Source: Chloroflexota bacterium (lineage in GTDB: Bacteria > Chloroflexota > Limnocylindria > Limnocylindrales > CSP1-4). Taken from it: DNA of 64,000 nucleotides. Positions 24,516 to 55,940 of the stretch are shown one piece after another (positions within the stretch are counted from its first letter, which is position 1; every line of letters starts with the position of its first letter). The translations under genes and the position numbers were made by a program. Where the stretch lies: assembly GCA_040755495.1 (NCBI GenBank), contig JBFMAT010000013.1:7968-71967 (forward strand), written 5' to 3'. The notes beneath the pieces were generated by a model. It ran no database searches. It was not told the DNA's origin and saw only the letters and a program-made list of their open reading frames with translations.

Positions 24516-24872
24516 GTGACCGGCATCTGGTACGTCGTCGGGTTCGCCTTCGCGGGCGTCTCGTTCGTCTTCCTGACGATCGGGCTGTCGTGGCTGATCA
24601 CCCATCGCACCCGGGGTGATCGCCACAAGGGCTACCCCTACGAGTCCGGGATCGACACCTACGGCGACACGCACGCCCGGTTCGGCATCTCGTTCTACAT
24701 CTACGCCCTGATGTTCGTCGCCTTCGACATCGAGGTGGTGTTCATCTACCTGTGGGCGCTGGTGTTCCGCGACCTGGCGCTGGCCGGCTTCATGAGCATG
24801 CTGGTGTTCGTGGTCATCCTCCTCGTGGGCCTCGCCTACGCCTGGCGAAAGGGGGTGCTCACGTGGAAGTGA
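24516..24872 (+). CDS. nuoA: NADH-quinone oxidoreductase subunit A
   Basis: [36 protein letters not shown]. Confidence 0.95.
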
Positions 24873-25627
24873 TCCCCGGCGGCCCGGACGAGATCCGGGA
24901 TCCCGGCGTCGGGCCGGCAGGCGGCACCGGGACGGACGACGAGGCCGGCCAGCGTCCCAGCGCACTGGTCACCGCGGCACCGCGAGACGTCGCCCAGCCG
25001 ATCGTCGTCCCCAACACCCTGTGGGCGTCGACGCGTCCCGAGGCCTACGGTGGCGGGCTGCCGACCGAGCACACGCACCTCCGCGAGCTCGAGGGCTCGC
25101 CCCTGCTGATCCGGGACGACGCTCGCTGGGGCGCGCTCGAGGTCATCCCCACCAAGGCCGACCTCGTGCTCGACCTGATCCGCATGAACAGCCTTTGGCC
25201 GCTGCTGTCGGGCCTGGCCTGCTGCGCGATCGAGATGATGTCCGCGGCGACGTCGCGCAACGACATGGACCGCTGGGGCATGTTCCCGTTCCGCGCCTCT
25301 CCCCGACAGGCGGACGTGCTGATCGTCGCCGGCACGCTGACCACCAAGATGGCCGGCCCGCTGGTCCGCCTGTGGGAGCAGATGCCGGAGCCCAAGTGGT
25401 GCGTGGCGATGGGCGACTGCACCTGCTCGGGCGGGCGCTACAAGCGCAGCTACGCCACGATCGAGGGCATCGACCGCGTGATGCCCGTGGACGTGTACGT
25501 GCCCGGCTGCCCGCCCCGGCCCGAGGGCCTGATCTACGGGATGATGAAGCTCGGCCAGCTGGTCAAGCAGCGCCGCGGCCAGTGGCCCGAGCGGACGGTT
25601 GGCCCCACCGTGCCGGAGGACGTCTAG
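24869..25627 (+). CDS. nuoB: NADH-quinone oxidoreductase subunit B
   Basis: [35 protein letters not shown] (N2 ligands); start uncertain. Confidence 0.95.
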
Positions 25628-25629
25628 GC

Positions 25630-26178
25630 ATGGACCGGAGCCTCCGCAAGCGGCTCGAGGCGCGGTTCGCTGACCGCCTGACCGGCCCGGTGCGCCAGCG
25701 CCACGACCAGACCGAGATCCGCATCCGCCCGGCGGACGTGCCCGAGGTCATGCGCGAGCTCCACGACGACCCGGCGCTCGGCTTCGAGATCCTCGCGGAC
25801 CTCGCGGGCGTGGACACGGGCACGCACATGCAAGTCGTCTACCACCTGTGGTCGGCCGGCACGCCGGACTGGCTCCGCGTGGTCGCGGACGGCATGCCCC
25901 GCGACGACCCACGCATCCCCACGCTCACCGGCCTGTGGCCGGGGGCGGAGTGGATGGAGCGCGAGACCTACGACATGTTCGGGATCATCTTCGAGGGCAA
26001 CCGTGACCTGCGGCGGATCTACATGCCGCCCGACTACACGAGCTTCCCGCTGCGCAAGGACTTCTACCTGCCGGACGACGCGGCCCGGTCCCCCGGTGGC
26101 GGCGTCCGCCACATGGAGCAGACGCACACCCCGACCCAGGCGACCCCGTCCGTGGTCCGCCGCACGGCGAAGGCGTAG
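25630..26178 (+). CDS. nuoC: NADH-quinone oxidoreductase subunit C
   Basis: AEWMERETYDMFGIIFEG..LRRI..PLRKDF. Confidence 0.93.
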   Translation: MDRSLRKRLEARFADRLTGPVRQRHDQTEIRIRPADVPEVMRELHDDPALGFEILADLAGVDTGTHMQVVYHLWSAGTPDWLRVVADGMPRDDPRIPTLTGLWPGAEWMERETYDMFGIIFEGNRDLRRIYMPPDYTSFPLRKDFYLPDDAARSPGGGVRHMEQTHTPTQATPSVVRRTAKA

Positions 26179-26180
26179 CC

Positions 26181-27416
26181 ATGACGACGACCACCCCGCA
26201 CCAGCACCCCTCCGCCGACGACCCCCGGGTGCTGCTCGACGACCAGGTCGGCGCGTTCGAGGCCGTCCCGCCGTACCCGCCGCGGACCGAGCGCGAGGCG
26301 GAGTTCTACTCGCTCGGCGACGGCGAGATGTTCCTCAACATGGGCCCCCAGCACCCGTCCACGCACGGGGTGCTGCGGGTCGTGCTCAAGATCGACGGCG
26401 AGCGGGTCGTGGACCTGGACCCGGTGCTCGGCTATCTCCACCGCGGCGTCGAGAAGCTGTGCGAGACCTCGGACTTCCACCACATCATCAGCCAGCTCGA
26501 CCCGCTCGAGTACATCAGCTCGCTGTTCATGGAGTGGGCGCCCGTGATGGCGTTCGAGCAGCTGCTGGACGTGCAGGTGCCGCGCCGGGCCGAGTACATC
26601 CGGGTGCTCACCGGCGAGCTCAACCGGGTCGCCAGCCACGCGCTGTTCCAGGGCTGGATGGCGCTGGACCTGGGCGGCCTGACCCCGATCCTGTACAGCT
26701 TCATCGAGCGCGACGAGATCGTCGAGATGCTGGCCGCGATCACCGGGCAGCGGATGCTGTTCAACTACTTCCGGGTCGGCGGCGTGAACGGCGACCTGAA
26801 CCACGAGTTCATGTCCCGCCTGGGCGACTGGATGAGCCGGGCGACCGCGCAGAACCAGGCCAACATCGAGCTGCTCAACGACAACGAGATCTTCGTCCGG
26901 CGCATGCGCGGCATCGGCCGGCTGGACCGCGAGACGGCCCTCCGGATGGGGACCACGGGCCCCAACATCCGCGCCGCGGGCGTGCCGTTCGACATCCGGC
27001 GGGCCCACCCGTACTCGGTCTACCCCGAGCTCGAGTTCGACATCCCGACCCGCGGCCATGACGGCGGTGGCGACTCGCTGGACCGCTACCTGCTCCGGCT
27101 GGACGAGGTCAAGCAGAGCCTCCGGATCATCGACCAGTGCCTCCACAACATGCCCGACGGGCCGGTCATGGCCCGCCTGCCGCGCCTGCTCCGGCCGCGT
27201 CCCGGCCGGGCGTGGGCCGCGGTCGAGGCGCCGCGCGGGCTGTTCGGCACGTACGTGATCTCGGACGGCACGGACCAGCCGTTCCGGATGAAGATCCACG
27301 ACCCCTCGTTCGTCAACCTCCAGCTGGTGGGGCTGCTGATGAAGGGCAACCTGATCGCGGACACCATGGCCGTGATGGCATCCCTCGATCCCGTCATGGG
27401 CGGCATCGACAAGTGA
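26181..27416 (+). CDS. nuoD: NADH-quinone oxidoreductase subunit D
   Basis: NMGPQHPSTHGVLR, GYLHRGVEK, ELNRVASH, EAPRG; no NiFe CxxC motifs. Confidence 0.95.
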   Translation: MTTTTPHQHPSADDPRVLLDDQVGAFEAVPPYPPRTEREAEFYSLGDGEMFLNMGPQHPSTHGVLRVVLKIDGERVVDLDPVLGYLHRGVEKLCETSDFHHIISQLDPLEYISSLFMEWAPVMAFEQLLDVQVPRRAEYIRVLTGELNRVASHALFQGWMALDLGGLTPILYSFIERDEIVEMLAAITGQRMLFNYFRVGGVNGDLNHEFMSRLGDWMSRATAQNQANIELLNDNEIFVRRMRGIGRLDRETALRMGTTGPNIRAAGVPFDIRRAHPYSVYPELEFDIPTRGHDGGGDSLDRYLLRLDEVKQSLRIIDQCLHNMPDGPVMARLPRLLRPRPGRAWAAVEAPRGLFGTYVISDGTDQPFRMKIHDPSFVNLQLVGLLMKGNLIADTMAVMASLDPVMGGIDK

Positions 27417-28765
27417 CGGCGATCGGGCGCGCCTGGGGGAACCTCACGGTCACCGGGAGGGTCCTCGTCCCGCTGCTGTTCCTGGTGCTCGTCGTCGCAC
27501 CGGTGGCGACCGTCCTGATCGCGCTGTTCGTCGGGCCGTGGGTCCTGGACGTCCTCGCCTCGAACCTGGGCATCGTCCGGTTCGTGGTCGCGATCACCGG
27601 GGTGCTGCTGTTCACGATCCCGGCCGCGTTCGTGATCATCTACATGGAGATGAAGGTCATCGCCCGGATGAACCTCCGGATCGGGCCCGACCGCGTCGGC
27701 CCGTACGGGTCCCTGATGTCCGTGGTCCACGGCCTCAAGTTCCTGTCCAAGGAGGACTTCACCCCGACGGGCGCCGACGTGCCGGTGTTCACGCTCGCCC
27801 CGGTGGCCGTGTTCCTGGCCACGGTCATGACCTTCCTGGTCGTGCCGTTCGGCCCCGGACTGGTCGGCCAGGACCTCAACATCGGCCTGCTGTACCTGTT
27901 CGCCGTCGGCGGCATGAACGTGGTCGGGCTGCTGATGGCCGGCTGGGCCAGCTTCAACAAGTACTCGCTGCTGGGTGGGCTGCGGGCCGCGGCCCAGGCG
28001 GTCAGCTACGAGATCCCGCTGACCCTCTCGGTCGTGGGCCTCGTGCTCCTGGCCGGCACGCTGAGCGTGTACCAGATCGGCGCGGCCCAGGCGGGCTGGT
28101 TCACGGACTGGTTCGTGTTCCGCCAGCCGCTGGGCGCCCTGATCTTCTTCATCGCCGGCACGGCGGAGGCCAACCGCTCGCCGCTGGACATGACCGAGGC
28201 GGACCAGGAGATCGTGGCGGGCTTCGCCACCGAGTACTCCGGGATGCGGTTCGCGTTCTTCTTCTTCGCCGAGTACGTGAACGTGTTCGTGATGTCGGCG
28301 CTCATCGTCACGCTGTTCTTCGGCGCCTGGAACGCCCCGTTCCCGTTCCCGGACGTCGCGCTGGCGCTGGACCCGGGCTCGCTGGGGATCGGGCTCGTGA
28401 TCCTGCTCGCGGCGGCGCCGGTGGCCCTGACCCTGCTGTTCGCGGCGCCGTTCTACCTCGCCCGCAGCTCGACGCCCGCCTGGCAGGCGCTGCTGCTCGG
28501 CTTCATCACGTTCAACGTGGTGGCGGTCGGCGGCCTGCTGGGTGCCGCCTACCTCGGGCTCGACTGGTTCGCCGGCCTCGCCTGGTTCATGGTCAAGACG
28601 TTCATCTTCGTGTTCGTCTTCGTGTGGATGCGGGGCACCTTCCCGCGGGTGCGCATCGACCAGCTGATGGGCTTCGCGTGGAAGTGGCTGCTGCCGGCGT
28701 CGCTGCTCAACCTGTTCGTGACCGCGGCGGCAATCCTCGTCGTCGATGCGCTGAAGGCCGGGTGA
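27413..28765 (+). CDS. nuoH: NADH-quinone oxidoreductase subunit H (450 aa, extra TM segments)
   Basis: RIGPDRVGPYG, KEDFTP, NKYSLLGGLRAAAQAVSYE, EYSGMRF, RGTFPRVRIDQLM. Confidence 0.93.
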   Translation: MTAIGRAWGNLTVTGRVLVPLLFLVLVVAPVATVLIALFVGPWVLDVLASNLGIVRFVVAITGVLLFTIPAAFVIIYMEMKVIARMNLRIGPDRVGPYGSLMSVVHGLKFLSKEDFTPTGADVPVFTLAPVAVFLATVMTFLVVPFGPGLVGQDLNIGLLYLFAVGGMNVVGLLMAGWASFNKYSLLGGLRAAAQAVSYEIPLTLSVVGLVLLAGTLSVYQIGAAQAGWFTDWFVFRQPLGALIFFIAGTAEANRSPLDMTEADQEIVAGFATEYSGMRFAFFFFAEYVNVFVMSALIVTLFFGAWNAPFPFPDVALALDPGSLGIGLVILLAAAPVALTLLFAAPFYLARSSTPAWQALLLGFITFNVVAVGGLLGAAYLGLDWFAGLAWFMVKTFIFVFVFVWMRGTFPRVRIDQLMGFAWKWLLPASLLNLFVTAAAILVVDALKAG

Positions 28766-28769
28766 CCCG

Positions 28770-29432
28770 ATGAGCACGATCCCCGGGATGGGCATGGTCC
28801 GCGGCATGGGCCTCACCCTGCGCCGCTTCTTCGCGCCCAAGGCCACGATCCAGTGGCCCGAGGTGCACGCGGACGTCGCGCCCAAGTTCCGCGGCCGCCT
28901 CCAGCTGCTGTACGACGAGTACGGCACGCTCAAGTGCGAGACCTGCTTCCAGTGCGCCCAGGCCTGCCCGATCGAGTGCATCGACATGGGCGGCATCGAC
29001 ACCAAGGGCCGCTTCCACGTCCACTGGGGCCCGCCCGAGACGTACGGCGAGCGGCGCGAGGAGTCGGCGCTCCGGCGCTCCGGGCGCCCGGTCGCGGACC
29101 ACGGCTACACGCGCTTCGAGGGCATCGACCTCGGCCCGCTGGACGCGATCCTCGATGCCCACGACTACGACCCCGGGGACATGCTCGCGATCCTCGAGGA
29201 GGCCCAGGCCGAGTACGGCTACCTGCCCGTGGCCGCGCTCCGGCACATCTCGCGGGTGACCGGCGCCTGGTACGCGATGATCTACGGCACCGCCACGTAC
29301 TACCGGCACCTCCGCTTCGAGCCGCCGGCCGTCACCGACACGCCACCGGCCGGCACGGCGCAACGCGGCATCGAGGACGGGTACCGGTCGGCGCTGGACG
29401 CCGCCCTGGGCCTCGGCGGGCGGCCGAGCTGA
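28770..29432 (+). CDS. Fusion of the NuoI N-terminal half with the NuoE N-terminal helical domain
   Basis: ATIQWPE..KFRGR..CETCFQCAQACPIECI (one ferredoxin motif), then LAILEEAQAEYGYLP..IYGTATYY; no NuoE 2Fe-2S Cys. Confidence 0.88.
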   Translation: MSTIPGMGMVRGMGLTLRRFFAPKATIQWPEVHADVAPKFRGRLQLLYDEYGTLKCETCFQCAQACPIECIDMGGIDTKGRFHVHWGPPETYGERREESALRRSGRPVADHGYTRFEGIDLGPLDAILDAHDYDPGDMLAILEEAQAEYGYLPVAALRHISRVTGAWYAMIYGTATYYRHLRFEPPAVTDTPPAGTAQRGIEDGYRSALDAALGLGGRPS

Positions 29433-30772
29433 TGGCCACCTTCCTCGCCACCCCGCGCCAGTGGCCCCGGGTGCTGACCGGGCGCGTTGACGCGCTCGCG
29501 GCCAACCCCGCGGACCTGGACGCCGCCGTGCGCGCCGGCGCCTTCGAGGGCCTGCGCAAGGCGGTTCGCGACCTGGGCGCCACCGGCACGATCGCGACGC
29601 TCGCGGCCTCCGGCCTCCGCGGCCGGGGCGGTGCCGGCATGCCCACCGGCCAGAAGTGGCGCGCCGCGTCCGCCCAGCCGGCAGACCAGCGCTACGTGGT
29701 GGGCAACGGCTACGGCGCCGACCCGGCGGTCCACACGGACCACGCGTTGCTGTCCTCGGACCCGTACGCCGTGATCGAGGGCCTTGTCATCGCCGCCTTC
29801 GCGACCGGCGCCACGCGGGCGATCCTTGCGGTCCGCGCGGACGATCCCGCGCTGGTCACGATGCTCGAGGGCGCCGTCCTCGCGGCCGAGGAGGCGGGCT
29901 TCGCCGGCGAGGACGTGCTGGGCACGGGCCACGCGGTGGAGGTCACCGTGCGGCCGGTCCAGGGCGCCTACATGCTGGGCGAGGAGACCGTGCTGCTCAA
30001 GGCCCTCGAGGGCCGGCGCGGCCAGCCCGAGCAGGTGCCGCCTTACCCCACCGAGCGCGGCCTGTTCGACCGGCCCACCGTCGTCAACAGCATCCACACG
30101 CTGGCCGCCGTCCCCTGGATCTGCCGCGAGGGCGGGGCGGCGTACGCGGCGATCGGCGCCAAGGGGAGCCCGGGGACGGCCCTCGTCCAGCTGCGCGGCC
30201 CGGCCGGCGGTGGCATCGCGGAGGTCCCGCTGGGCACGCCGCTGCGCGACCTCGTCAAGCTCGCGGGCGGCACCGGCCCGCGCCCGCTCAAGGCGCTGCT
30301 CGTGGGCGGCCCGACCGGCGGCCTGCTCCCCGCGGAGCTCCTGGACACGCCCTACGAGTTCGACGCGCTGCGCGCGGCCGGCGCACACCTCGGCTCCGGG
30401 TCCGTGGTGATCGCGGACGACCGGACCTGCGTGGTGGACCTGGCGCGTCTGCTGACCCGCTTCTCGGCCGACAACGCGTGCGGCAAGTCCATCCCCTGCC
30501 GGATCGGGCTGCGCCGGCTGTCCGAGATCGGCGACCGGATCGCCGGCGGGCGCCCGAAGCCCACCGACGCCACTCTCCTCGGCGACCTCGCCCACGACAT
30601 CGTGGCCAGCGGCCTGTGCGACCACGAGCGCCTGGCCACCCTGCCGTTCACCAGCGGGATGCGATACTTCCGCTCCGAGATCGACGACCACATCCTCCGC
30701 TCCACCTGCCCCGCCGGCGTCTGCCAGCCGATCGCGGTGGCGGCGGGCGCGGCCCACCGGGACCACGCTTGA
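29432..30772 (+). CDS. Degenerate NuoF/HydB-like subunit
   Basis: SGLRGRGGAG.PTG.KW, GEET, GGPTGG, C-terminal CPAGVC; several flavin/NAD-site and N3 residues are altered. Confidence 0.85.
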   Translation: MATFLATPRQWPRVLTGRVDALAANPADLDAAVRAGAFEGLRKAVRDLGATGTIATLAASGLRGRGGAGMPTGQKWRAASAQPADQRYVVGNGYGADPAVHTDHALLSSDPYAVIEGLVIAAFATGATRAILAVRADDPALVTMLEGAVLAAEEAGFAGEDVLGTGHAVEVTVRPVQGAYMLGEETVLLKALEGRRGQPEQVPPYPTERGLFDRPTVVNSIHTLAAVPWICREGGAAYAAIGAKGSPGTALVQLRGPAGGGIAEVPLGTPLRDLVKLAGGTGPRPLKALLVGGPTGGLLPAELLDTPYEFDALRAAGAHLGSGSVVIADDRTCVVDLARLLTRFSADNACGKSIPCRIGLRRLSEIGDRIAGGRPKPTDATLLGDLAHDIVASGLCDHERLATLPFTSGMRYFRSEIDDHILRSTCPAGVCQPIAVAAGAAHRDHA

Positions 30773-33432
30773 TGGCCGACCTGATCACGCGCCCCGACCC
30801 CACGCTCGAGCGACCGCGCGAGGTCCGCCCGGACGCCCCGATGGTGTACGACACCGTCACGCCCCGGGAGGACTCGCTCGCCGAGCGGCTGATCACCACC
30901 CAGTCCCCGCAGCGGCCGCAGAGCACGCCGCGGATCCGGATCGAGGTGGACGGCCGGGTCGTCGAAGGGTTCGAGGGCCAGACGATCCTCGAGGTCTGCC
31001 GGGACAACGGGATCGAGATCCCCACCCTGTGCTACGAGCCCAAGCTGCCGGGCTTCGGCGCCTGCCGGATGTGCGTGGTCGAGGTCGAGGGCGAGGAGAC
31101 GCCGCCGATCTCCTGCTCGCGCGCGGCCGAGGCCGGGATGGTCGTCCAGACCCAGACCGAGGAGCTGCGCCGCCTCCGCCGGACGAACCTGGAGCTGATC
31201 TTCTCCGACCACAACGCCTACTGCCTGCCGCCGTGCCAGAACAAGTGCCCCAGCCACATCGACATCCCGGGCTTCCTGCGGGCCAACGCCGAGGCGAGCT
31301 GGCGGGAGAGCGCGCGGATCTTCAAGCGCACGATCCCGTTCCCGTCCATCCTCGGCCGGGTGTGCCCCGCCCCGTGCGAGGAGCACTGCCGGCGCGACGA
31401 GGTGGACGAGGCGATCGCGATCCGCGACAGCCACCGCTACGCCGGCGACCAGGTGCTGCGGGCGATGCTGGACGAGGGCGTGGACCCGCCGCTGCCGTTC
31501 GAGCGCCAGGCACCGACCGGCCGCCGCGCGGCGGTGATCGGCTCCGGGCCCGCCGGCATGGCCGCCGCCTACTACCTGCTGCTCAACGGCCACGAGGTGA
31601 CCGTGTTCGAGCGCGACCCCGCCCCGGGCGGCATGCTCCGATACGGCATCCCGCAGTACCGGCTGCCGAAGGTCGAGGTCCTCGAGGCCGAGTACGAGGC
31701 CGTCTGGCGCCTGGGCGCGAAGCTCCAGTGCAACATGGAGCTGGGCAAGGACTTCACGCTCGACGACCTGCAGAACCAGGGCTTCGACGCGGTGGTCGTG
31801 GCCATCGGCTGCTACGACACCAACAAGCTGGGCATCCCCAACGAGGACGCGGACGGCGTCATCGACGGCCTCGAGTACCTGCGCACGGCCACCCTGGGCC
31901 TGCCGTACCCGGGCCACGAGGGGACCCGGGCGGTCGTGATCGGCGGCGGGTTCACGGCCATGGACTGCGTCCGGACCTCGGTCCGCCAGGGTGCCGGCGA
32001 GGTCACGCTGGTCTACCGCCGCGACATGAAGGACATGCCGGCGGCGAGCGAGGTGCACGAGGCGATCGAGGAGGGCGTCACCACGATCTTCCAGGCCGGC
32101 CCGACCCGCGTGATCACGGATGAGCGCACCGGCAAGGTCACCGGCGTCGAGTTCATCCGGATGCAGCTCGGCGAGCCGGACGCGTCCGGCCGGCGCCGCC
32201 CGGAGCCCGCCCCCGGCACCGAGTTCACGATCGACTGCGACCGCGTGCTGCTGGCGATCGGCCAGGGTCCCGACCTGCGCTGGATCGGCCCGGGCTCCGA
32301 GGGCCCACTGGCCACCAGGCAGCGCCGCCTGGGCGCCGACGCCGTGACGTTCGAGACGGCCCGTCCCGGCGTGTTCGGCACCGGCGACGTCCGGATCGGC
32401 GCCGCGACCGTCGTCCAGGCCATCGCGGAGGGCCGGCGGGCCGCATACGCGGTGGACGCCTACCTGCGGGGCCAGGACCTGGCCGCGATCCGGACCCGGC
32501 AGACGCTGGCGGAGCCGCAGCCCGAGTTCCTCTCGATCGTCCCGTTCACCGGCGAGGTCAAGGAGCCGCGCTACCGGCTCAAGGCGCTGGAGGCCGAGGC
32601 CCGCAACCGCAGCTACATCGAGTACGAGATCCCGTACACCGGGGAGGAGGCCGTGGCGGAGTCCACCCGCTGCCTGCAGTGCACCTGCGAGGCGATCGGG
32701 TTCTGCGACCTGCGCCGGCTGGGCATCGAGTACGGCACCACGCTGCGCACCCTGGAGCCCGCCTTCCACCAGGGCGCCGGCTACCGGAGCGTGACCGAGA
32801 ACCGGTTCACCGGCATCAACCACGACTACCTCCGCGATGACAGCCACGCGTTCATCCTGCGCGAGCCGTCCCGGTGCATCGACTGCGGCCGGTGCGCGAA
32901 CGTGTGCGCCGAGGTGGTGGGCGCCGCCTGCTACGACTTCATGCGGATCGGCTTCGACACGCTGGTGACGACGCCGCTGGACATGAGCCTCAACGACACG
33001 CCCTGCGTGTCCTGCGGGCGGTGCGCGGAGACCTGCCCCACCGGCGCGCTGATGCCCAAGCCCAGGATCCTCCAGAAGTACGAGGTCGACGAGAGCCGCT
33101 GCATCCTGTGCGGCATCTGCGTCGACGCCTGTCCATACGACGCCGTCCGCGACAGCGACCAGTTCGAGCTCAGCCACACGTCCCGCGAGGAGCCGATGAT
33201 CGACCTCCTCGCGCTGGCCTCGATCGAGCGCGAGACGGAGATGAGCTACATCCGCAAGGAGCGGGACTGGGCGGATCGCGCCCGGGCCGAGGGCAGGCTC
33301 CTCGACCCGGCGCGGAACCTCCCGGTGCTCCCCGCCTCGCTCGTGAGCGGCCATGGGAACGGCTCGGGGAACGGGCACCCAGCGCGCCAACTGGGGTCCG
33401 GGACCGGGTCGGGACACGCCCAGGACCACTGA
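30772..33432 (+). CDS. NuoG N-terminal Fe-S domains + GltD-like FAD/NAD(P)H domain + NuoI C-terminal half (886 aa)
   Basis: 2Fe-2S IPTLC..GACRMC..SC; PPCQNKCP, GRVCPAPCE, GSGPAG, GGGFTAMD, VYRR; CIDCGRCANVC and CVSCGRCAETCP; terminal YEVDESRCILCGICVDACPYDAV..FEL. Confidence 0.9.
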   Translation: MADLITRPDPTLERPREVRPDAPMVYDTVTPREDSLAERLITTQSPQRPQSTPRIRIEVDGRVVEGFEGQTILEVCRDNGIEIPTLCYEPKLPGFGACRMCVVEVEGEETPPISCSRAAEAGMVVQTQTEELRRLRRTNLELIFSDHNAYCLPPCQNKCPSHIDIPGFLRANAEASWRESARIFKRTIPFPSILGRVCPAPCEEHCRRDEVDEAIAIRDSHRYAGDQVLRAMLDEGVDPPLPFERQAPTGRRAAVIGSGPAGMAAAYYLLLNGHEVTVFERDPAPGGMLRYGIPQYRLPKVEVLEAEYEAVWRLGAKLQCNMELGKDFTLDDLQNQGFDAVVVAIGCYDTNKLGIPNEDADGVIDGLEYLRTATLGLPYPGHEGTRAVVIGGGFTAMDCVRTSVRQGAGEVTLVYRRDMKDMPAASEVHEAIEEGVTTIFQAGPTRVITDERTGKVTGVEFIRMQLGEPDASGRRRPEPAPGTEFTIDCDRVLLAIGQGPDLRWIGPGSEGPLATRQRRLGADAVTFETARPGVFGTGDVRIGAATVVQAIAEGRRAAYAVDAYLRGQDLAAIRTRQTLAEPQPEFLSIVPFTGEVKEPRYRLKALEAEARNRSYIEYEIPYTGEEAVAESTRCLQCTCEAIGFCDLRRLGIEYGTTLRTLEPAFHQGAGYRSVTENRFTGINHDYLRDDSHAFILREPSRCIDCGRCANVCAEVVGAACYDFMRIGFDTLVTTPLDMSLNDTPCVSCGRCAETCPTGALMPKPRILQKYEVDESRCILCGICVDACPYDAVRDSDQFELSHTSREEPMIDLLALASIERETEMSYIRKERDWADRARAEGRLLDPARNLPVLPASLVSGHGNGSGNGHPARQLGSGTGSGHAQDH

Positions 33433-33441
33433 GAGGGACGT

Positions 33442-34005
33442 GTGACGCTGCCTGAGACGATCCCGCTGCTCGGGATCGGGTGGGACGACCTGCTGTTCCT
33501 GGCGCTGACCGGGGTGATGCTCGGCTCCGCCCTGCTCGTGGTCACGATGCGCGACATCATCCGGTGCGGCCTGGCGATGATCGTCAGCTTCGGCGCCCTC
33601 GCCGGGCTGTACGTCCTCGCCGGGGCGCCGTTCGTCGCCGGCGCCCAGGTCCTGGTGTACATCGGCGCGATCAGCGTCCTGATCCTGTTCGCGATCATGC
33701 TCACCCAGACCAAGGATGCGCCCGGCGCCCTCGTGTTCCAGACCCAGGCGATCCCGGCCGCGATCGCCGCGCTGGTCATGGCGCTGATCCTGGCGATCAC
33801 GGTCGTGGCCACGGACTGGAGCGCCGTCGCGGACCGCATGTGGACGTTCACCGGCAAGGCGCCGGCCGGCCGGGACGAGCTCGGCGTCGCCGAATCGCTG
33901 TTCCAGGACTACGTGCTGCCGTTCGAGGTCGTGTCCGTGCTGCTGCTGGCCGCGGTGGTCGGCGGCGTGTTCATCGCCAAGCGCGAGCGGCGGGGGGACG
34001 CCTGA
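33442..34005 (+). CDS. nuoJ: NADH-quinone oxidoreductase subunit J
   Basis: QVLVYIGAISVLILFAIML, YVLPFEVVSVLLLAA. Confidence 0.94.
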   Translation: MTLPETIPLLGIGWDDLLFLALTGVMLGSALLVVTMRDIIRCGLAMIVSFGALAGLYVLAGAPFVAGAQVLVYIGAISVLILFAIMLTQTKDAPGALVFQTQAIPAAIAALVMALILAITVVATDWSAVADRMWTFTGKAPAGRDELGVAESLFQDYVLPFEVVSVLLLAAVVGGVFIAKRERRGDA

Positions 34006-34337
34006 TGCTCGCCTTCCTGGACGGGATCTCGCGGTCGCTGGACGCCTACCTCGTCATCGCGGGGATCATGTTCGCCGTCGGCTCGTTCGGCTTCCTGGCC
34101 CGCCGCAACGCGATCAGCATGCTGATGTCGATCGAGCTCATGCTCAACGCCGTCAACCTCGCGATCATCGGGTTCGGGGCGTTCATCCCCGCGCTCCACC
34201 CCGACGCGTCGGTGATCGCGCTGATCGTGATGGCCGCCGCCGCCGCCGAGGCGACGATCGGCCTCGCGATCGTGATCGCCATCTTCCGCAACCGGAAGAC
34301 GCCGCTCGTCGACGAGTACGACGCGATGCGGCAGTAG
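34005..34337 (+). CDS. nuoK: NADH-quinone oxidoreductase subunit K
   Basis: RRNAISMLMSIELMLNAVN, AAAEATIGLAI. Confidence 0.95.
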   Translation: MLAFLDGISRSLDAYLVIAGIMFAVGSFGFLARRNAISMLMSIELMLNAVNLAIIGFGAFIPALHPDASVIALIVMAAAAAEATIGLAIVIAIFRNRKTPLVDEYDAMRQ

Positions 34338-34349
34338 GGCGGGCGGACG

Positions 34350-36437
34350 ATGCATCTCCTGCCGATCACGCTCCTCGCCGCCGCGGAGGGCTCGGAGGCC
34401 GTCGCCGCGGATCCCGGCATCTACGCGACGCTGATCCCGCTGATCATCGCGCTGCCGCTGGCGGGCTTCGTGTTCACGACCTTCTTCGGGCGGCGGCTGC
34501 AGGCCTCGTTCGGGAGGAACGTGGCCGCCGCGGTCCCGCTGGGCGTGGTAATCGCGTCGTGGGTCGTGGCGATGGTCGTGGTCTCGGCGGTGCTCCAGCA
34601 CCAGGGACCGTTCCCGGAGCACGGCCCCGGCCTGGACCTCACGCTGTGGACCTGGATCCCGGCCGGCGTCGACCCGGCCACCGGGCGCGAGCTCACCGTC
34701 GACTTCGGGTTCCACGTGGACGCCCTCACCGCGGTGCTCCTGATCGTGGTCACGACGATCGGCCTGCTCGTCCACCTGTACTCGGTCGGGTACATGGCCC
34801 ACGACCCGGGCACCTGGCGGTTCTTCGCCTACCTCAACCTGTTCATGGTCTCGATGCTCCTGCTCGTGCTGGCCGGCAACTGGCTGCTGGTGTTCGCGGG
34901 CTGGGAGCTGGTCGGCCTGTCGTCCTACTCGCTGATCGGGTTCTGGTACCAGAAACGGTCGGCGGCGCTGGCCGCCAAGAAGGCGTTCATCGTCAACCGC
35001 GTGGGCGACGTGGGGTTCGCGCTCGGGATCATGGCCATCTGGGTCAACACCGGGACGCTGGACATCCAGGCCTCACTGGCCAGGCTGATCGAGACGCCGG
35101 CCGCGGAGCTCACGGTCCCGCTGTGGATCGTCGCGCTGCTGGTGTTCGCGGGCGCGATGGGCAAGAGTGCCCAGTTCCCGCTCCACGTCTGGCTGCCGGA
35201 CGCGATGGAGGGCCCCACCCCGGTGTCCGCCCTGATCCACGCGGCCACGATGGTCAACGCGGGCGTCTACCTCGTCGCCCGGGCCAACCCGCTGTTCGCG
35301 CACGCGCAGGACGCGATGGTCGTGGTGGCGGCGATCGGCATCTTCACCGCCATCCTGGCCGCCTCGATCGCCTTCACCCAGACCGACATCAAGCGCGTGC
35401 TCGCCTACTCCACGCTGTCGCAGCTGGGCTACATGTTCGCCGCCCTGGGCGTGGGCGCCTTCATCGCGGCGATCTTCCACCTCATGACCCACGGCTTCTT
35501 CAAGGGCCTGCTGTTCCTCGGGTCCGGCTCGGTGATCCACGCCGTCCACGAGGAGCAGGACATGAACCGGATGGGCGCGCTGTGGCGGAAGATCCCGATC
35601 ACCCACTGGACGATGCTGGTGGGCACGATCGCGATCGCCGGCATCCCGCCCCTGGCGGGCTTCTTCTCCAAGGACGAGATCCTGGGCGAGGCATTCAAGT
35701 TCGGGTTCACCTGGGTGTGGGCGATCGGCCTCCTGGTCGCCGCGATGACGGCGTTCTACATGTGGCGCCTGATGGGCAAGACGTTCTACGGCGAGTCGCG
35801 CGTGGACCCGCACGTGGAGCCGAAGGTCCACGAGTCCGCCTGGACGATGACGGTGCCCCTGGTCCTGCTGGCGATCCCGTCGGCGCTGCTGGGCCTCGCG
35901 CTCACGTGGGGGGGCCCGCCGCTCAACCCCGAGGGGACCGGGCTGCTCAAGGGCTGGCTGGAGCCGGTGTTCGAGGAGGCGGAGCTGTACCTCCACGGCG
36001 AGGCGCACGCCTACGAGCTGTTCGGCATCGACGGCATCCTGATCCTGGCCAGCGTGGCCGTGGCGACCCTCGGCCTCGTCGCCGGCATCGCGCTGTTCGG
36101 GTTCTTCCGGGCGCGCGGCCTGCGGGCCACCGCCGACCGGATCGCCGGCGGCACCCGGGTCACCCGGTTCCTGTACCGGGCCTCGCTCAACAAGTGGTGG
36201 TTCGACGAGCTCAACGACCTGCTGTTCATCCGCATCGGCGGGCGCGTCGCGGCCTTCCTGTGGTGGTTCGACCGGACGATCGTGGACGGCACCGTCAACG
36301 GCGTCGGCGCCCTCACCCGGGACGCGGGCGGCGGGCTGCGCCGGATCCAGACGGGCCGGGTCCAGAACTACGCGCTGGGCATCGCGATCGGGCTGATCGT
36401 CATGGCCGGCTCCTTCCTCGTGATCGTGAGCCGCTGA
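34350..36437 (+). CDS. nuoL: NADH-quinone oxidoreductase subunit L
   Basis: GWELVGL, KAFIVNRVGD, GKSAQFPLHVWLPDAMEGPTPVSALIHAATMV, IQTGRVQNY. Confidence 0.96.
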   Translation: MHLLPITLLAAAEGSEAVAADPGIYATLIPLIIALPLAGFVFTTFFGRRLQASFGRNVAAAVPLGVVIASWVVAMVVVSAVLQHQGPFPEHGPGLDLTLWTWIPAGVDPATGRELTVDFGFHVDALTAVLLIVVTTIGLLVHLYSVGYMAHDPGTWRFFAYLNLFMVSMLLLVLAGNWLLVFAGWELVGLSSYSLIGFWYQKRSAALAAKKAFIVNRVGDVGFALGIMAIWVNTGTLDIQASLARLIETPAAELTVPLWIVALLVFAGAMGKSAQFPLHVWLPDAMEGPTPVSALIHAATMVNAGVYLVARANPLFAHAQDAMVVVAAIGIFTAILAASIAFTQTDIKRVLAYSTLSQLGYMFAALGVGAFIAAIFHLMTHGFFKGLLFLGSGSVIHAVHEEQDMNRMGALWRKIPITHWTMLVGTIAIAGIPPLAGFFSKDEILGEAFKFGFTWVWAIGLLVAAMTAFYMWRLMGKTFYGESRVDPHVEPKVHESAWTMTVPLVLLAIPSALLGLALTWGGPPLNPEGTGLLKGWLEPVFEEAELYLHGEAHAYELFGIDGILILASVAVATLGLVAGIALFGFFRARGLRATADRIAGGTRVTRFLYRASLNKWWFDELNDLLFIRIGGRVAAFLWWFDRTIVDGTVNGVGALTRDAGGGLRRIQTGRVQNYALGIAIGLIVMAGSFLVIVSR

Positions 36438-37984
36438 TGAACGTCGACCAGATCCCGATCGTGTCGCTGATCGTGTTCCTGCCCCTGCTGGGCGCGCTGG
36501 TCGTGGCGTTCCTGCCCGGCAGGCGCACGGACCTCATCCGCTGGACGGCGCTGGGCTTCGCGCTCGCGGCGTGGGTCGTGTCGCTGATCCTGCTGGTGGG
36601 CTTCCCGCCCGGCCGGCCGGGGTTCGAGTACACCCAGGCGATCGACTGGATCCCGCTGTTCGGCATCCAGTACAAGGTCGGGGTGGACGGGCTGTCGATG
36701 GCGATGGTCGTGCTGACCACGACGCTGACCTGGATCAGCATCCTCGCCTCGTTCCGGCCGATCCAGAACCGGGTCAAGGAGTACATGGTCTCGTTCCTCG
36801 TGCTCGAGGTCGGGATGATCGGGGTGTTCGTGGCCCTGGACCTGTTCCTGTTCTACGTGTTCTGGGAGCTGGTCCTCGTCCCGATGTACCTGATCATCGG
36901 CGTGTGGGGCGGCGCGAACCGCATCTACGCCACGATCAAGTTCGTCCTGTACACGCTGGTCGGCTCACTGCTGATGCTGGTCGCGATCCTGGCCACCGCG
37001 TTCACGTACCAGGCGGCGACCGGCTCGTGGGCGGGCGCCTTCGACCTCGAGGTCCTGAGCGCGCACGCGGCGACCGGCGCCTTCGATCCCACGTTCCAGT
37101 TCCTCGCCTTCGGCGCGTTCTTCCTCGCGTTCGCGATCAAGGTTCCGATGTTCCCGTTCCACACCTGGCTCCCCGACGCCCACGTCGAGGCCCCCACCGC
37201 CGGCTCGGTGATCCTGGCCGGCGTCCTGCTCAAGCTGGGCGGCTACGGGTTCATCCGGTTCGCGCTGCCGCTGTTCCCGGACGCGGCGCACACGTGGGCG
37301 CCCGCGATCATCGTGCTGTCGCTGATCGCGATCATCTACGGCGCGGTCGTGGCGCTCGTCCAGCCGGACCTCAAGAAGCTGGTCGCGTACTCCTCGGTCA
37401 GCCACATGGGCTTCGTGACCCTGGGCATCTTCGTGTTCCAGCCCCAGGCCCTCCAGGGCGCCATCCTGCAGATGGTCAACCACGGCCTGATCACCGGCGC
37501 CCTGTTCCTGCTGGTGGGGGTGATCTACGAGCGGACCCACGACCGGACGATCGCCAAGATGGGCGGGCTGGGGGCGAAGGTCCCGGTCTACGCCGCGTTC
37601 TTCGGGTTCTTCGTGTTCGCGTCGGTCGGCCTGCCGGGCCTGTCCGGGTTCGTGGGCGAGTTCCTCACGCTGATCGGCACGTTCGCCGTCCAGCCGTGGG
37701 CGGCCGTGGTGGCGACGTTCGTGATGATCCTCGCCGCCGGGTACCTGCTGTGGATGTTCCAGCGGGTGGCGTTCGGCGAGGTGTCGGACTTCCTCAAGGG
37801 CCTCGGCGGGCACCTGACCGACATGCGCCCCGTGGAGGTGTTCACGCTGGTGCCGCTGGGCGCGCTGGTCGTCGTGTTCGGCCTGTTCCCCGGCCTGATC
37901 CTCAACCTCGTGGGCGGGTCCGTCACCCACACCCTGGACGCGGTCCTGCGGGGCGCGCCCGTCGCCCTCGGGCTGTGGCGGTAG
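36437..37984 (+). CDS. nuoM: NADH-quinone oxidoreductase subunit M
   Basis: FYVFWE, AIKVPMFPFHTWLPDAHVEAPT, KKLVAYSSVSHMG. Confidence 0.96.
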   Translation: MNVDQIPIVSLIVFLPLLGALVVAFLPGRRTDLIRWTALGFALAAWVVSLILLVGFPPGRPGFEYTQAIDWIPLFGIQYKVGVDGLSMAMVVLTTTLTWISILASFRPIQNRVKEYMVSFLVLEVGMIGVFVALDLFLFYVFWELVLVPMYLIIGVWGGANRIYATIKFVLYTLVGSLLMLVAILATAFTYQAATGSWAGAFDLEVLSAHAATGAFDPTFQFLAFGAFFLAFAIKVPMFPFHTWLPDAHVEAPTAGSVILAGVLLKLGGYGFIRFALPLFPDAAHTWAPAIIVLSLIAIIYGAVVALVQPDLKKLVAYSSVSHMGFVTLGIFVFQPQALQGAILQMVNHGLITGALFLLVGVIYERTHDRTIAKMGGLGAKVPVYAAFFGFFVFASVGLPGLSGFVGEFLTLIGTFAVQPWAAVVATFVMILAAGYLLWMFQRVAFGEVSDFLKGLGGHLTDMRPVEVFTLVPLGALVVVFGLFPGLILNLVGGSVTHTLDAVLRGAPVALGLWR

Positions 37985-37994
37985 GAGGCTGAGC

Positions 37995-39473
37995 GTGGGC
38001 TACGAAGACATCGTCACCCTCGCCCCCTTCATCGCGACGATCCTGGTCGCGGCGGCGATCCTGTTCGTGGACTTCGTCGCGCCCGGGCGCAAGGTCCCGG
38101 CGCTGGCGGTCACGTTCGGTGGCCTCGCGCTGGTGGCGGTCCTCGTCGTGCTCACCGGCCAGAGCGCGGTCACCGGCCGCGACGAGGTCACGGCGTTCCA
38201 GGGCGCCTACGTCGTCGATCGGCTGACGACGTTCCTGGACCTGCTGTTCGTCTCGATCGCCGCCCTCACGATCGCGTTCGCCCCGGACTACCTCGAGGAG
38301 CGGGAGCTGCCGGTGGCGGAGTTCGCCGCCGTGCTCGTGTTCGCGATCTCGGGCGCGATGCTGATCTCCGCGTCCGCGGACCTGCTGGTCCTGTTCCTGG
38401 GCCTGGAGCTGATGGTCCTGCCCGGCTACGTGCTCGCGGGCTACCACAAGTCGGACGGGTACAGCACCGAGGGCGCGATCAAGTACTTCCTGCTGGGCTC
38501 GTTCTCGAGCGCGATCTTCCTGTTCGGCCTCGCGTTCGTGTGGGGCCTCACGGGCACCACCAGCATCGCCGGGGTCGCCGGGGTGCTGGGCCAGGTCGCG
38601 GACGGGCGGCCGCTGTCGCCCGGCCTGGGCATGGGGCTCGCGTTCCTGACCACGGGCGTGGCGTTCAAGATCGCCGCCGTCCCGTTCCACTACTGGACGC
38701 CCGACGCGTACCAGGGCTCGCCCACCCCGGTCACCGGCTACCTGTCGGTGGGCCCCAAGGTGGGGGCGTTCGCGCTGATCATCCGGCTGTTCGCGGAGGC
38801 CCTCGGGCCGCTGGCCGCGGACTGGAACGTCGTGGTCATGGTCCTCGCCGCCACGACGATGACGCTGGGCAACCTGGTCGCCCTCACACAGGACAACGTC
38901 AAGCGGATGCTGGCCTACTCGTCGATCGCGCACACCGGCTACATGCTGGTGGGCTTCGCGGCCTGGGCGGCGGGGCAGCCGTCCGGCCTGGAAGGGCTGC
39001 TGTACTACGGCGCGGCGTACGCGTTCATGAACCTGGGTGCGTTCGCCGTCATCGCCGCGCTCCAGAAGCGCCTCGGCGTGACCAGCAACCTGTCCACGTT
39101 CGCGGGCCTCATCCGGCGCGAGCCGGCGCTGGCGATCCTGATGACGCTGTTCCTGCTGTCGCTCACCGGGATCCCGCCCACGGCCGGCTTCTTCGGCAAG
39201 TTCTACGTGATCCTCGCGGCCGTCCAGGCCGGCGGCTGGCTCGCCGTGCTGGCCGTGCTCGCCGTGCTCAACGCCGCGGCCGCCGCGTTCTACTACCTGC
39301 GGGTCGTGGTCTACATGTTCATGCGCGACCCGACGACCGAGATCCCCTCGCTCACCCACGGTCGCCTGGTGTGGGCAGGCCTCGCGGTGGCGACGGTGCT
39401 CACGATCGTGCTCGGGCTGTTCCCGGGCGCGATGCTCGAGATCGTGGGCGGCGCCGCAAAGGCGATCGGCTAG
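37995..39473 (+). CDS. nuoN: NADH-quinone oxidoreductase subunit N
   Basis: EGAIKYFLLG, FKIAAVPFHYWTPDAYQG, KRMLAYSSIAH, GIPPTAGFFGK; AGGAGG RBS. Confidence 0.96.
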   Translation: MGYEDIVTLAPFIATILVAAAILFVDFVAPGRKVPALAVTFGGLALVAVLVVLTGQSAVTGRDEVTAFQGAYVVDRLTTFLDLLFVSIAALTIAFAPDYLEERELPVAEFAAVLVFAISGAMLISASADLLVLFLGLELMVLPGYVLAGYHKSDGYSTEGAIKYFLLGSFSSAIFLFGLAFVWGLTGTTSIAGVAGVLGQVADGRPLSPGLGMGLAFLTTGVAFKIAAVPFHYWTPDAYQGSPTPVTGYLSVGPKVGAFALIIRLFAEALGPLAADWNVVVMVLAATTMTLGNLVALTQDNVKRMLAYSSIAHTGYMLVGFAAWAAGQPSGLEGLLYYGAAYAFMNLGAFAVIAALQKRLGVTSNLSTFAGLIRREPALAILMTLFLLSLTGIPPTAGFFGKFYVILAAVQAGGWLAVLAVLAVLNAAAAAFYYLRVVVYMFMRDPTTEIPSLTHGRLVWAGLAVATVLTIVLGLFPGAMLEIVGGAAKAIG

Positions 39474-55913: not shown

Positions 55914-55940
55914 GGGGGACCCTCCTACGCAGCGTTGAAG

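Follow-up and report, generated by a model that had tools for sequence, protein, structure and literature searches.

How do electrons enter a complex I whose operon holds no intact nuoI gene and carries, in the place of NuoG, a protein with a complete GltD-type flavoprotein module? This question is posed by a window of 64,000 nucleotides from a Chloroflexota genome of the class Candidatus Limnocylindria (assembly GCA_040755495.1, contig JBFMAT010000013.1; the window is this whole stretch, and positions are given in its numbering unless another contig is named), in which a gene at 30772-33432 (+), here called Gx, lies in a nuo operon. Complex I is described in textbooks as specific for reduced nicotinamide adenine dinucleotide (NADH), and for its NuoEFG input module a single acquisition is assumed. 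The explanation that we favour overall, and to which we give an even chance of being correct, is that a cassette of the type of the Bfu transhydrogenases sits inside nuoI, that Gx takes the place of NuoG in a rebuilt complex I, and that the phosphorylated cofactor NADPH would feed the proton pump.

Gx (P0001, 886 residues) is a BfuA/StnC-type subunit that ends in the C-terminal half of NuoI. It is encoded by a single open frame of 886 codons, the ATG of which shares bases with the stop codon of the preceding gene (TGATG), and its third-position guanine plus cytosine (G+C) content is 0.9-1.0 throughout; the window as a whole has 73% G+C. An initial interpretation made from the letters alone (the sequence-only reading) had described the product as a NuoG/HydA-type N-terminus followed by a GltD-type flavin and NAD(P)H module, without a molybdopterin-like C-terminal domain. 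This description is borne out by the translation, which contains every motif quoted, and by the domain matches. Residues 54-129 (30931-31158, +) form a HydA/NuoG-type [2Fe-2S] domain (Pfam Fer2_4, E 4.7e-22). The GltD-type module occupies residues 147-570 (31210-32481, +; Fer4_20 at 151-228 and Pyr_redox_2 at 253-554), and holds Cys/His cluster motifs, the motif GSGPAG (257-262) for flavin adenine dinucleotide (FAD), and the NAD(P)H motif GGGFTAMD...VYRR (391-398 and 414-417); residues 139-160 read LELIFSDHNAYC-LPPCQNKCP and residues 195-206 read GRVCPAPCEEHC. The motif CLQCTC..CDL (634-647) and a HydA/NuoG-type 2[4Fe-4S] domain (together residues 634-760, 32671-33051, +; Fer4_Nqo3 at 695-760) are collinear with residues 570-680 of the solved structure 9bov_A; CIDCGRCANVC and CVSCGRCAETCP come after CLQCTC..CDL. 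Further Fer4 motifs reach residue 792, and the third CxxCxxCxxxCP motif (777-788) lies outside the 2[4Fe-4S] domain and corresponds to the C-terminal half of NuoI. No molybdopterin domain was detected in Gx by the Pfam scan. The first 53 residues (30772-30930) are a variable leader, and residues 817-886 (33220-33429) a C-terminal tail with a Gly/Asn/His-rich end (GHGNGSGNGH) that is absent in two other families of the class (f3 and f4, see below); a long helix is predicted at residues 812-839.

A phmmer search of solved structures places Gx among the large subunits of bifurcating transhydrogenases. The match to 9bov_A (E 2.4e-161) covers residues 55-788 with all Cys/His motifs aligned and stops near residue 700 of the 1178 residues of that protein; the matches to StnC (8oh5_C, E 1.7e-141) and NfnA (9n5u_A, E 2.2e-140) are likewise collinear, in agreement with the resemblance proposed earlier. 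The GGGxTAMD...YRR residues of Gx are aligned with identical residues in 9bov_A and 8oh5_C. Models of better known families fit less well. The NuoG model TIGR01973 scores 85.6 bits against a cut-off of 470 and covers residues 57-155 only, and PRK12814, a putative long-form small subunit of NADPH-dependent glutamate synthase in NCBIfam, scores 550.2 against 916 over residues 55-714. Both GltD models also stay below their cut-offs (TIGR01318 with 319.5 against 483, TIGR01317 with 230.7 against 447.7), and the module is embedded at residues 152-568 of a longer chain, not a stand-alone protein of about 470 residues as members of the GltD family are. By its position directly after a NuoF-type gene and its Fer2_4 and Fer4_Nqo3 domains, Gx nevertheless occupies the functional slot of NuoG.

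The cluster and cofactor motifs are strictly conserved in an alignment of 15 Gx sequences from four Limnocylindria families and the Ktedonobacteria. Invariant in all 15 are the [2Fe-2S] cysteines C87, C98, C101 and C115, the motifs SDHxAYCxPPCQxxCP, CPxPCxxxCRR and RCLQCxC, both ferredoxin-type motifs, the FAD-binding GxGPxG (with the fifth-position Ala of GSGPAG in at least 90% of the rows), GGGxTxxD and YRR, and the NuoI-type CIxCGxCxxxCP...FE (C777, C780, C783, C787, P788, F798 and E799). A wider motif survey covered 93 NuoF-like sequences, 89 Gx sequences and 90 sequences of the protein IN_E described below.

NuoI is encoded in this operon as two complementary halves, one joined to the first protein of the cassette and the other to its last. 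IN_E (P0002, 220 residues, 28770-29432, +) begins with the N-terminal half of NuoI (residues 1-80, 28770-29009, +), which carries the first CxxCxxCxxxCP motif, CETCFQCAQACP, and continues into a cluster-less N-terminal helical domain of NuoE, here NuoE'. The C-terminal half (CILCGICVDACP...FEL) is found at residues 765-816 of Gx (33064-33219, +). The two halves cover successive parts of the NuoI model TIGR01971, IN_E residues 12-75 matching positions 1-63 of 121 and Gx residues 765-810 matching positions 71-116. The same division is seen with solved structures: residues 12-78 of IN_E match NuoI/TYKY proteins, residues 17-81 of Paracoccus NuoI (8qby_I) are covered by IN_E and residues 93-142 by the Gx tail, and TYKY residues 152-200 are also matched by the half in Gx. 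Each half scores only 43.7-47.4 bits against the cut-off of 113, and both motifs never occur on one polypeptide here. In 15 diverse sequences, C56, C59, C62, C66 and P67 of IN_E are invariant. No intact NuoI above the cut-off was found in the genome, the assembly of which (3.74 Mb in 112 contigs) is 95.7% complete; the next candidate reaches 50.6 bits (cut-off 113) and belongs to a group-4-hydrogenase-like cluster with which contig C24 begins.

The NuoE' domain of IN_E (residues 122-191, 29133-29342, +) matches the helical domain of NfnC (9bov_C residues 19-88), its residues 125-186 correspond to positions 2-63 of the 145 in Pfam 2Fe-2S_thioredx, and its helices are predicted with confidence by AlphaFold2 (AF2; predicted local distance difference test, pLDDT, 85-97 in blocks at residues 121-160). 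The thioredoxin-like [2Fe-2S] domain is absent, and IN_E contains no Cys past the ECI of the first motif and none that could bind a [2Fe-2S] cluster. In some relatives a vestige of the thioredoxin-like domain survives, with two to three Cys; in this genus nothing of it is left. One homologue (closed-looking genome G074, L039:9803-10360) diverges after about residue 166 and ends at 186 residues, which may be due to a frameshift or sequencing error.

Between IN_E and Gx lies the gene for a NuoF-like subunit of 446 residues (29432-30772, +), of the type that binds flavin mononucleotide (FMN) and resembling the core of BfuB. It scores 316.7 bits with the NuoF model TIGR01959 (cut-off 558.65). Its best matches among solved structures are 9bov_B (9.7e-102), NfnB (6e-101), HydB (3.5e-98) and 8oh5_B (4.9e-98), with canonical NuoF proteins at 4.8e-73 or weaker, and it aligns to the core of the Bfu B-subunit only (residues about 113-527 of 584), without the terminal Fe-S/Zn domains. 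The window copy, directly upstream of Gx, carries an RGRGGAG loop and a GEET motif. The FMN loop RGRGGxG is present in 63 of the 93 NuoF-like sequences by the strict pattern, the rest having failed the pattern or being cut, and in 10 of 10 aligned sequences; GEET or GEES is found in 89 of the 93. A gene of this kind, for about 440 residues, is present in every locus inspected, and the FMN site looks to have been kept under weaker constraint. Because Gx, the NuoF-like subunit and NuoE' have their best matches in 9bov_A, 9bov_B and 9bov_C, respectively, the cassette as a whole can be assigned to the Bfu (Stn/Nfn) type. In such proteins the GltD-type insertion already exists, and the earlier suggestion that a flavoprotein had been inserted into the NuoG of this organism is thus abandoned.

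The genes around the cassette form a true complex I operon, as had been supposed, since the nuo neighbours have Pfam and NCBIfam matches. The order on the plus strand is nuoA-B-C-D-H, IN_E, NuoF-like, Gx, nuoJ-K-L-M-N, with tight spacing and overlapping stop and start codons, so that A, B, C, D, H, J, K, L, M and N are all in one operon, five of them (B, D, H, K and M) above NCBIfam cut-offs. Upstream of the cassette are nuoA (24516-24872, 118 residues; best NCBIfam NuoA match 98 bits, below the cut-offs, the frame being supported by third-position GC), nuoB (24863-25627, with an uncertain GTG start at 24863 or 24869; NF005012, 213.7 bits against 116), nuoC (25630-26178, 182 residues from an ATG start; TIGR01961, 109 against 122), nuoD (26181-27416, 411 residues; NF004739, 406.8 against 360, and Pfam Complex1_49kDa) and, directly after nuoD as in operons of the 11-subunit type, nuoH (27413-28765, start uncertain between 27413, 27485 and 27503; NF004741, 313.8 against 305). 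Downstream follow nuoJ (33442-34005; 115 bits with NuoJ models, below the cut-offs), nuoK (34005-34337; NF004320, 93.9 against 57), nuoL (34350-36437; Pfam Proton_antipo_M, Proton_antipo_N and Proton_antipo_C), nuoM (36437-37984; TIGR01972, 599.5 against 263.8) and nuoN (37995-39473; Pfam Proton_antipo_M), all on the plus strand. Three of these proteins have N-terminal extensions before the parts that match the models, of about 90 residues in NuoB (24863-25140), about 48 in NuoD (26181-26320) and about 50-100 in NuoH, depending on the choice of start (27413-27570). These stretches may be adaptors for an unusual peripheral arm.

The closest known systems are the soluble bifurcating Bfu transhydrogenases, i.e. 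StnABC (8OH5), NfnABC (9BOV) and archaeal NfnABC (9N5U), which consist of the same three collinear subunits. The accessible parts of the two papers concerned assign 8OH5 to StnABC of Sporomusa ovata (PMC10482914) and give 9BOV in connection with NfnABC of Caldicellulosiruptor saccharolyticus (PMC11829005). The large Bfu subunit resembles Gx in its [2Fe-2S] N-terminus, in the position at which a GltD-type FAD/NADPH module is inserted, and in its clusters of the NuoG/HydA type; the core of the B-subunit shares its FMN loop with the NuoF-like subunit, and the C-subunit its helical domain with NuoE'. The differences lie in what has been lost and what has been joined on. Gx lacks the C-terminal Fdh/molybdopterin-like domain of about 480 residues, which mediates tetramer formation in StnC-type subunits according to the available text of PMC10482914. 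The [2Fe-2S] cluster of the C-subunit is missing here, as are the N- and C-terminal Fe-S/Zn domains of the B-subunit, and the ends of the cassette are fused to halves of NuoI, with the genes inside a nuo operon. In view of the lost parts, the NuoI fusions and the operon, the enzyme described here, unlike Bfu, is presumably membrane-bound, quinone-reducing and non-bifurcating.

With the canonical complex I of 14 subunits (Nqo1-15 of T. thermophilus, Nuo of E. coli) the enzyme has in common the Q-module and the membrane subunits, and also a flavoprotein/Fe-S input module that ends at the clusters of NuoI (TYKY, Nqo9). In canonical nuo operons, nuoEFG lie between nuoD and nuoH. The cassette found here is instead inside nuoI, and NuoI is spread over two polypeptides; a protein with FAD and NADPH motifs stands in the place of NuoG, N1a, N7 and the molybdopterin-like domain are absent, and the NuoF-like subunit is nearer to BfuB than to NuoF. 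A point mutation in the NADH site of NuoF reportedly enables an engineered complex I of E. coli to oxidise NADPH (Morina et al. 2011). That enzyme and the present one have in common the notion of an energy-converting NADPH:quinone oxidoreductase, but the present case is natural and has a separate FAD/NADPH module.

Once the cassette is removed, the operon has the backbone A-B-C-D-H-I-J-K-L-M-N of the 11-subunit complex I, to which cyanobacterial NDH-1 and archaeal Fpo with FpoF belong, and which carries an add-on donor module near NuoI (Moparthi and Hagerhall 2011, PMC3144371, as far as its available text goes). The add-on here differs from those of the 11-subunit relatives in its covalent attachment to the two NuoI halves and in its two flavin sites. 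A GltD-related flavoprotein in the place of NuoI is described for mbx-like operons in the accessible part of Degli Esposti 2015 (PMC4758237), so that a GltD-type NAD(P)H flavoprotein on a complex-I-like membrane enzyme is common to both cases. In those hydrogenase/Mbx-type enzymes NuoI has been replaced, while here both NuoI motifs are kept, albeit split, and the whole Bfu cassette is present. No description of the present design was found in the literature, the supplementary operon figures of PMC4758237 and PMC3144371 lying outside the search.

We propose that a three-gene Stn/NfnABC-type cassette came to lie within the nuoI gene of an operon of the 11-subunit type, with the halves fused to its first and last proteins. 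NADPH would donate hydride to the FAD of the GltD-type module of Gx, from which electrons would pass over the two [4Fe-4S] clusters of the module to the NuoG-type chain, the 2[4Fe-4S] domain and a reassembled NuoI, and from there via N2 in NuoB to menaquinone, driving the NuoL/M/N pumps. The two halves would have to come together into one NuoI fold with N6a and N6b, tethering the input module to NuoB and NuoD, and the split of NuoI would thus form the physical link to the membrane arm. In StnC, which binds FAD and NADPH and in which the FAD is non-bifurcating, the chain runs linearly as FAD-C7-C6-C5-C4-C3-B1-FMN with C1 and C2 as an unused side branch (PMC10482914, available text); the branch of Gx that matches this C1/C2 side branch is probably the live path to NuoI. 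The NuoF-like FMN subunit would connect to this chain as its counterpart does in Stn. For Bfu enzymes, the accessible part of PMC11829005 gives B1-FMN-C1 as the smallest site capable of bifurcation, with a low-potential exit via B3/B4. Since the [2Fe-2S] cluster C1 of BfuC and the exit domain B3/B4 of BfuB are both absent, electron bifurcation has probably been lost.

The likelihood of the two entry points differs. Entry of NADPH at the FAD of Gx is plausible because Gx conserves the FAD, GGGxTxxD and YRR motifs of StnC and NfnA, which bind NADPH; this part of the sequence-only reading stands. Its further claim, that NADH is not a donor, is unsupported, as a NuoF-like FMN subunit is retained. 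The odds that this subunit provides a second site, of the NADH type, are about even, because it evolves faster and one N3 cysteine has been lost in most lineages.

Of 151 genomes sampled from the class (six of the 151, G087, G096, G123, G091, G067 and G112, are unpublished), 146 carry the IN_E fusion, as do 109 of the 111 with a completeness of at least 90%. As the same layout recurs in these 146 genomes and in closed genomes, misassembly or a frameshift as the origin of the split nuoI was rejected. Families f1, f2 and f4 share the gene order of the window; in f4, a gene for a PAS-domain protein and one for a protein with a metallo-beta-lactamase fold lie between Gx and nuoJ (L032:14297-15543, +). 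In family f3 (e.g. genome G004) one locus contains B-D-IN_E-F-Gx and another C-H-J-K-L-M-N without nuoI, with a single NuoD and a single NuoH per genome.

Outside the class, at least 32 of 268 genomes have a match spanning both halves, counted among the 150 matches listed for 301 sampled genomes from across the phylum; five of the 301 are unpublished, none of them among the 32. Six loci outside the class read B-IN_E-F-Gx or A-B-C-D-H-IN_E-F-Gx. The cultured species Thermogemmatispora carboxidivorans was found by exact look-up (Gx WP_052888283.1, IN_E WP_052888281.1), and clusters at 90% identity add further Thermogemmatispora species, Reticulibacter, Dictyobacter and uncultured Ktedonobacterales. 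In the Ktedonobacteria the cassette occurs beside a canonical complex I: three closed genomes (G251, G275 and G299) also encode an intact NuoI of the canonical kind, along with a second pair of NuoD and NuoH. The second locus of G251 contains A-C-D-H without nuoB or nuoI, so that the cassette together with nuoB supplies exactly what this locus lacks. A profile search of 1.84 billion representative proteins gave 8905 matches at E <=1e-3 and 72 at E <=1e-30; ten that span both halves carry by name only 'ferredoxin', 'NuoE' or a Chloroflexota label. In sequencing runs, 24 runs from 15 studies each contained 0.05-0.12 of the words searched. Short contigs from four soil metatranscriptomes, each of a different study, align to the stretch (430, 327, 535 and 447), and 53, 47, 86 and 87 of them, respectively, are at least 99% alike; since these matches are contigs, mostly from relatives, with carry-over of DNA possible and no silent control stretch, they are at best a hint that the genes are transcribed in soil.

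We tentatively suggest, at somewhat less than an even chance, that the 11-subunit backbone gained an input module a second, independent time, when a soluble Stn/Nfn-type transhydrogenase cassette entered nuoI and shed its bifurcation parts. The result would be a natural two-flavin proton pump that accepts electrons from NADPH and NADH alike, perhaps with exchange between the two, and that serves as the only complex I of the Limnocylindria and as a second isoenzyme in cultured Ktedonobacteria.

Against an NADPH-fed complex I with two inputs stand several features of the NuoF-like subunit, the presence of PntB, the way in which the cofactors were assigned, and parts of the structure predictions. 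The N3 motif of the NuoF-like subunit reads CGK[T/S/A]xPC, with the second Cys replaced, in 81 of 90 matched sequences (93 were examined); the full CxxCxxC is found in the other nine, which come from Ktedonobacteria and family f3, and three did not match. The residue before PPYP is Arg in 63 sequences, Lys in 7 and another in 6, with 17 off the pattern, and the window copy has Val at this Lys/Arg position; the NADE-type motif of the NuoF-like subunit has become NGYGADP. The NuoF-like subunit and IN_E are among the least conserved subunits. For the NuoF-like subunit, identity to the window is 45% in f4 (Gx 59%, NuoD 56%) and 34-37% in f3 (Gx 46-47%, NuoD 44%). These changes suggest that the FMN/NADH site is weakened, which argues against a dual input. 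Together with the loss of the N1a/C1 cluster and, in this genus, of the entire thioredoxin-like domain, they would suit a complex I that is fed by NADPH only, with the FAD of Gx as sole entry and the NuoF-like subunit and NuoE' as structural remnants in which FMN and N3 are lost or inactive. The FMN loop and the GEET/GEES motif are nonetheless widely kept, as is the full N3 motif in f3 and the Ktedonobacteria, and the gene is retained at all loci inspected; an enzyme of this kind is unlikely, though worth serious attention. Conversely, NADH could be the donor through the FMN of the NuoF-like subunit, and the GltD-type module mainly an outlet, where NADP+ is reduced from NADH, as by a built-in transhydrogenase, or by reverse flow from quinol driven by the proton-motive force. 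Both flavin sites are conserved, and FAD/NADPH and FMN/NAD are reversibly linked by one chain in Stn and Nfn (accessible parts of PMC10482914 and PMC11829005). The genome does, however, encode PntB, the beta subunit of the proton-translocating transhydrogenase (568 bits, C43:16232-17635, -), which already links the NADH and NADPH pools. Formation of NADPH by reverse electron flow, as envisaged in the sequence-only reading, is therefore possible but not needed as the only route. A link between NADH and NADPH without the bifurcation parts would be uncoupled and tend to equalise the pools, the NuoF-like site looks weakened in most lineages, and with no other complex I in the Limnocylindria forward respiration must use this enzyme. 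An outlet for NADP+ is accordingly improbable.

The preference of the GltD-type site is likewise judged from motifs, as are its cofactor content and substrate, with YRR adopted from relatives as an indicator of NADPH preference. The site might prefer NADH or another redox partner, which would make the complex an ordinary NADH:quinone oxidoreductase of unusual build; the specificity has been read from motif likeness only, and all GltD-family scores are below the cut-offs. Yet the GGGxTxxD...YRR motif is of the same type as in StnC and NfnA, with NADPH bound in StnC (PMC10482914, available text), and YRR is present in 78 of 81 pattern-matched Gx sequences (89 examined), so that we regard this as a distinctly improbable reading. 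That the three proteins form a soluble Nfn/Stn-like enzyme, encoded in the nuo operon but not docked on the membrane arm, seems highly improbable. The cassette is found apart from the membrane-subunit genes in f3 and the Ktedonobacteria, as would be expected for such an enzyme, but the NuoI halves travel with it, the remaining nuo loci lack nuoI, NuoB (in f3 also NuoD) is encoded beside it, and the tetramerising Fdh-like domain of StnC/NfnA and the bifurcation parts are missing.

Prediction gives weak support to pairing of the NuoI halves. For IN_E residues 1-100 with Gx residues 758-835 and two [4Fe-4S] clusters, the pairing score was 0.32, with 0.00 for the best of three controls, a weak pass that may reflect likeness to solved NuoI. 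Of 80 solved complexes 58 attain the mark used, as do 2 of 110 mismatched pairs; at <=0.60 the solved complexes fall to 7 of the 80, while both mismatches remain. At least 82% of contacts are shared between the runs, and the pLDDT of the partner is at least 51. The N-terminal half alone is not predicted to fold (pLDDT <50 for IN_E residues 22-115, AF2), and in the AF2 model of Gx, built on 15 aligned sequences, confidence is confined to residues about 51-570, the Fe-S C-terminus with its NuoI half (residues 575-831) having a pLDDT <50.

The nuoD of the window encodes the sole NuoD of the complex I type in the genome. The hydrogenase-like cluster on contig C24 (L017:24-2772, +) has a fused NuoC/NuoD-type large subunit with a NiFeSe_Hases match, and its next open frame combines a NuoI/HycF-like dicluster stretch with a NuoB-type small subunit. 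The genome has just one further NuoF-type gene, on contig C26, which encodes a NuoE-NuoF fusion beside a formate-dehydrogenase-like protein with Fer2_4, Fer4_Nqo3 and Molybdop_Fe4S4 domains; this pair (L018:8100-12248, -) looks like an NAD-linked formate dehydrogenase. In the window itself, a very long open frame (about 2339 codons, third-position GC high) lies at 50568-57584 (-).

If the favoured explanation, a Bfu-type cassette inside nuoI that lets NADPH feed the pump, is true, this would be a natural NADPH-accepting complex I, in which the core Fe-S subunit NuoI is assembled from two polypeptides and the input module derives from bifurcating transhydrogenases and has been inserted at a different place in the operon. 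It would bear on the modular evolution of redox enzymes, on the question of the donor of 11-subunit complex I, and on the NADPH balance of the Limnocylindria. The presence of the cassette in cultured Thermogemmatispora and other Ktedonobacteria makes the claim testable at the bench. The Limnocylindria are an abundant class in soil and freshwater, and common soil bacteria may thus feed NADPH as well as NADH into a proton pump.

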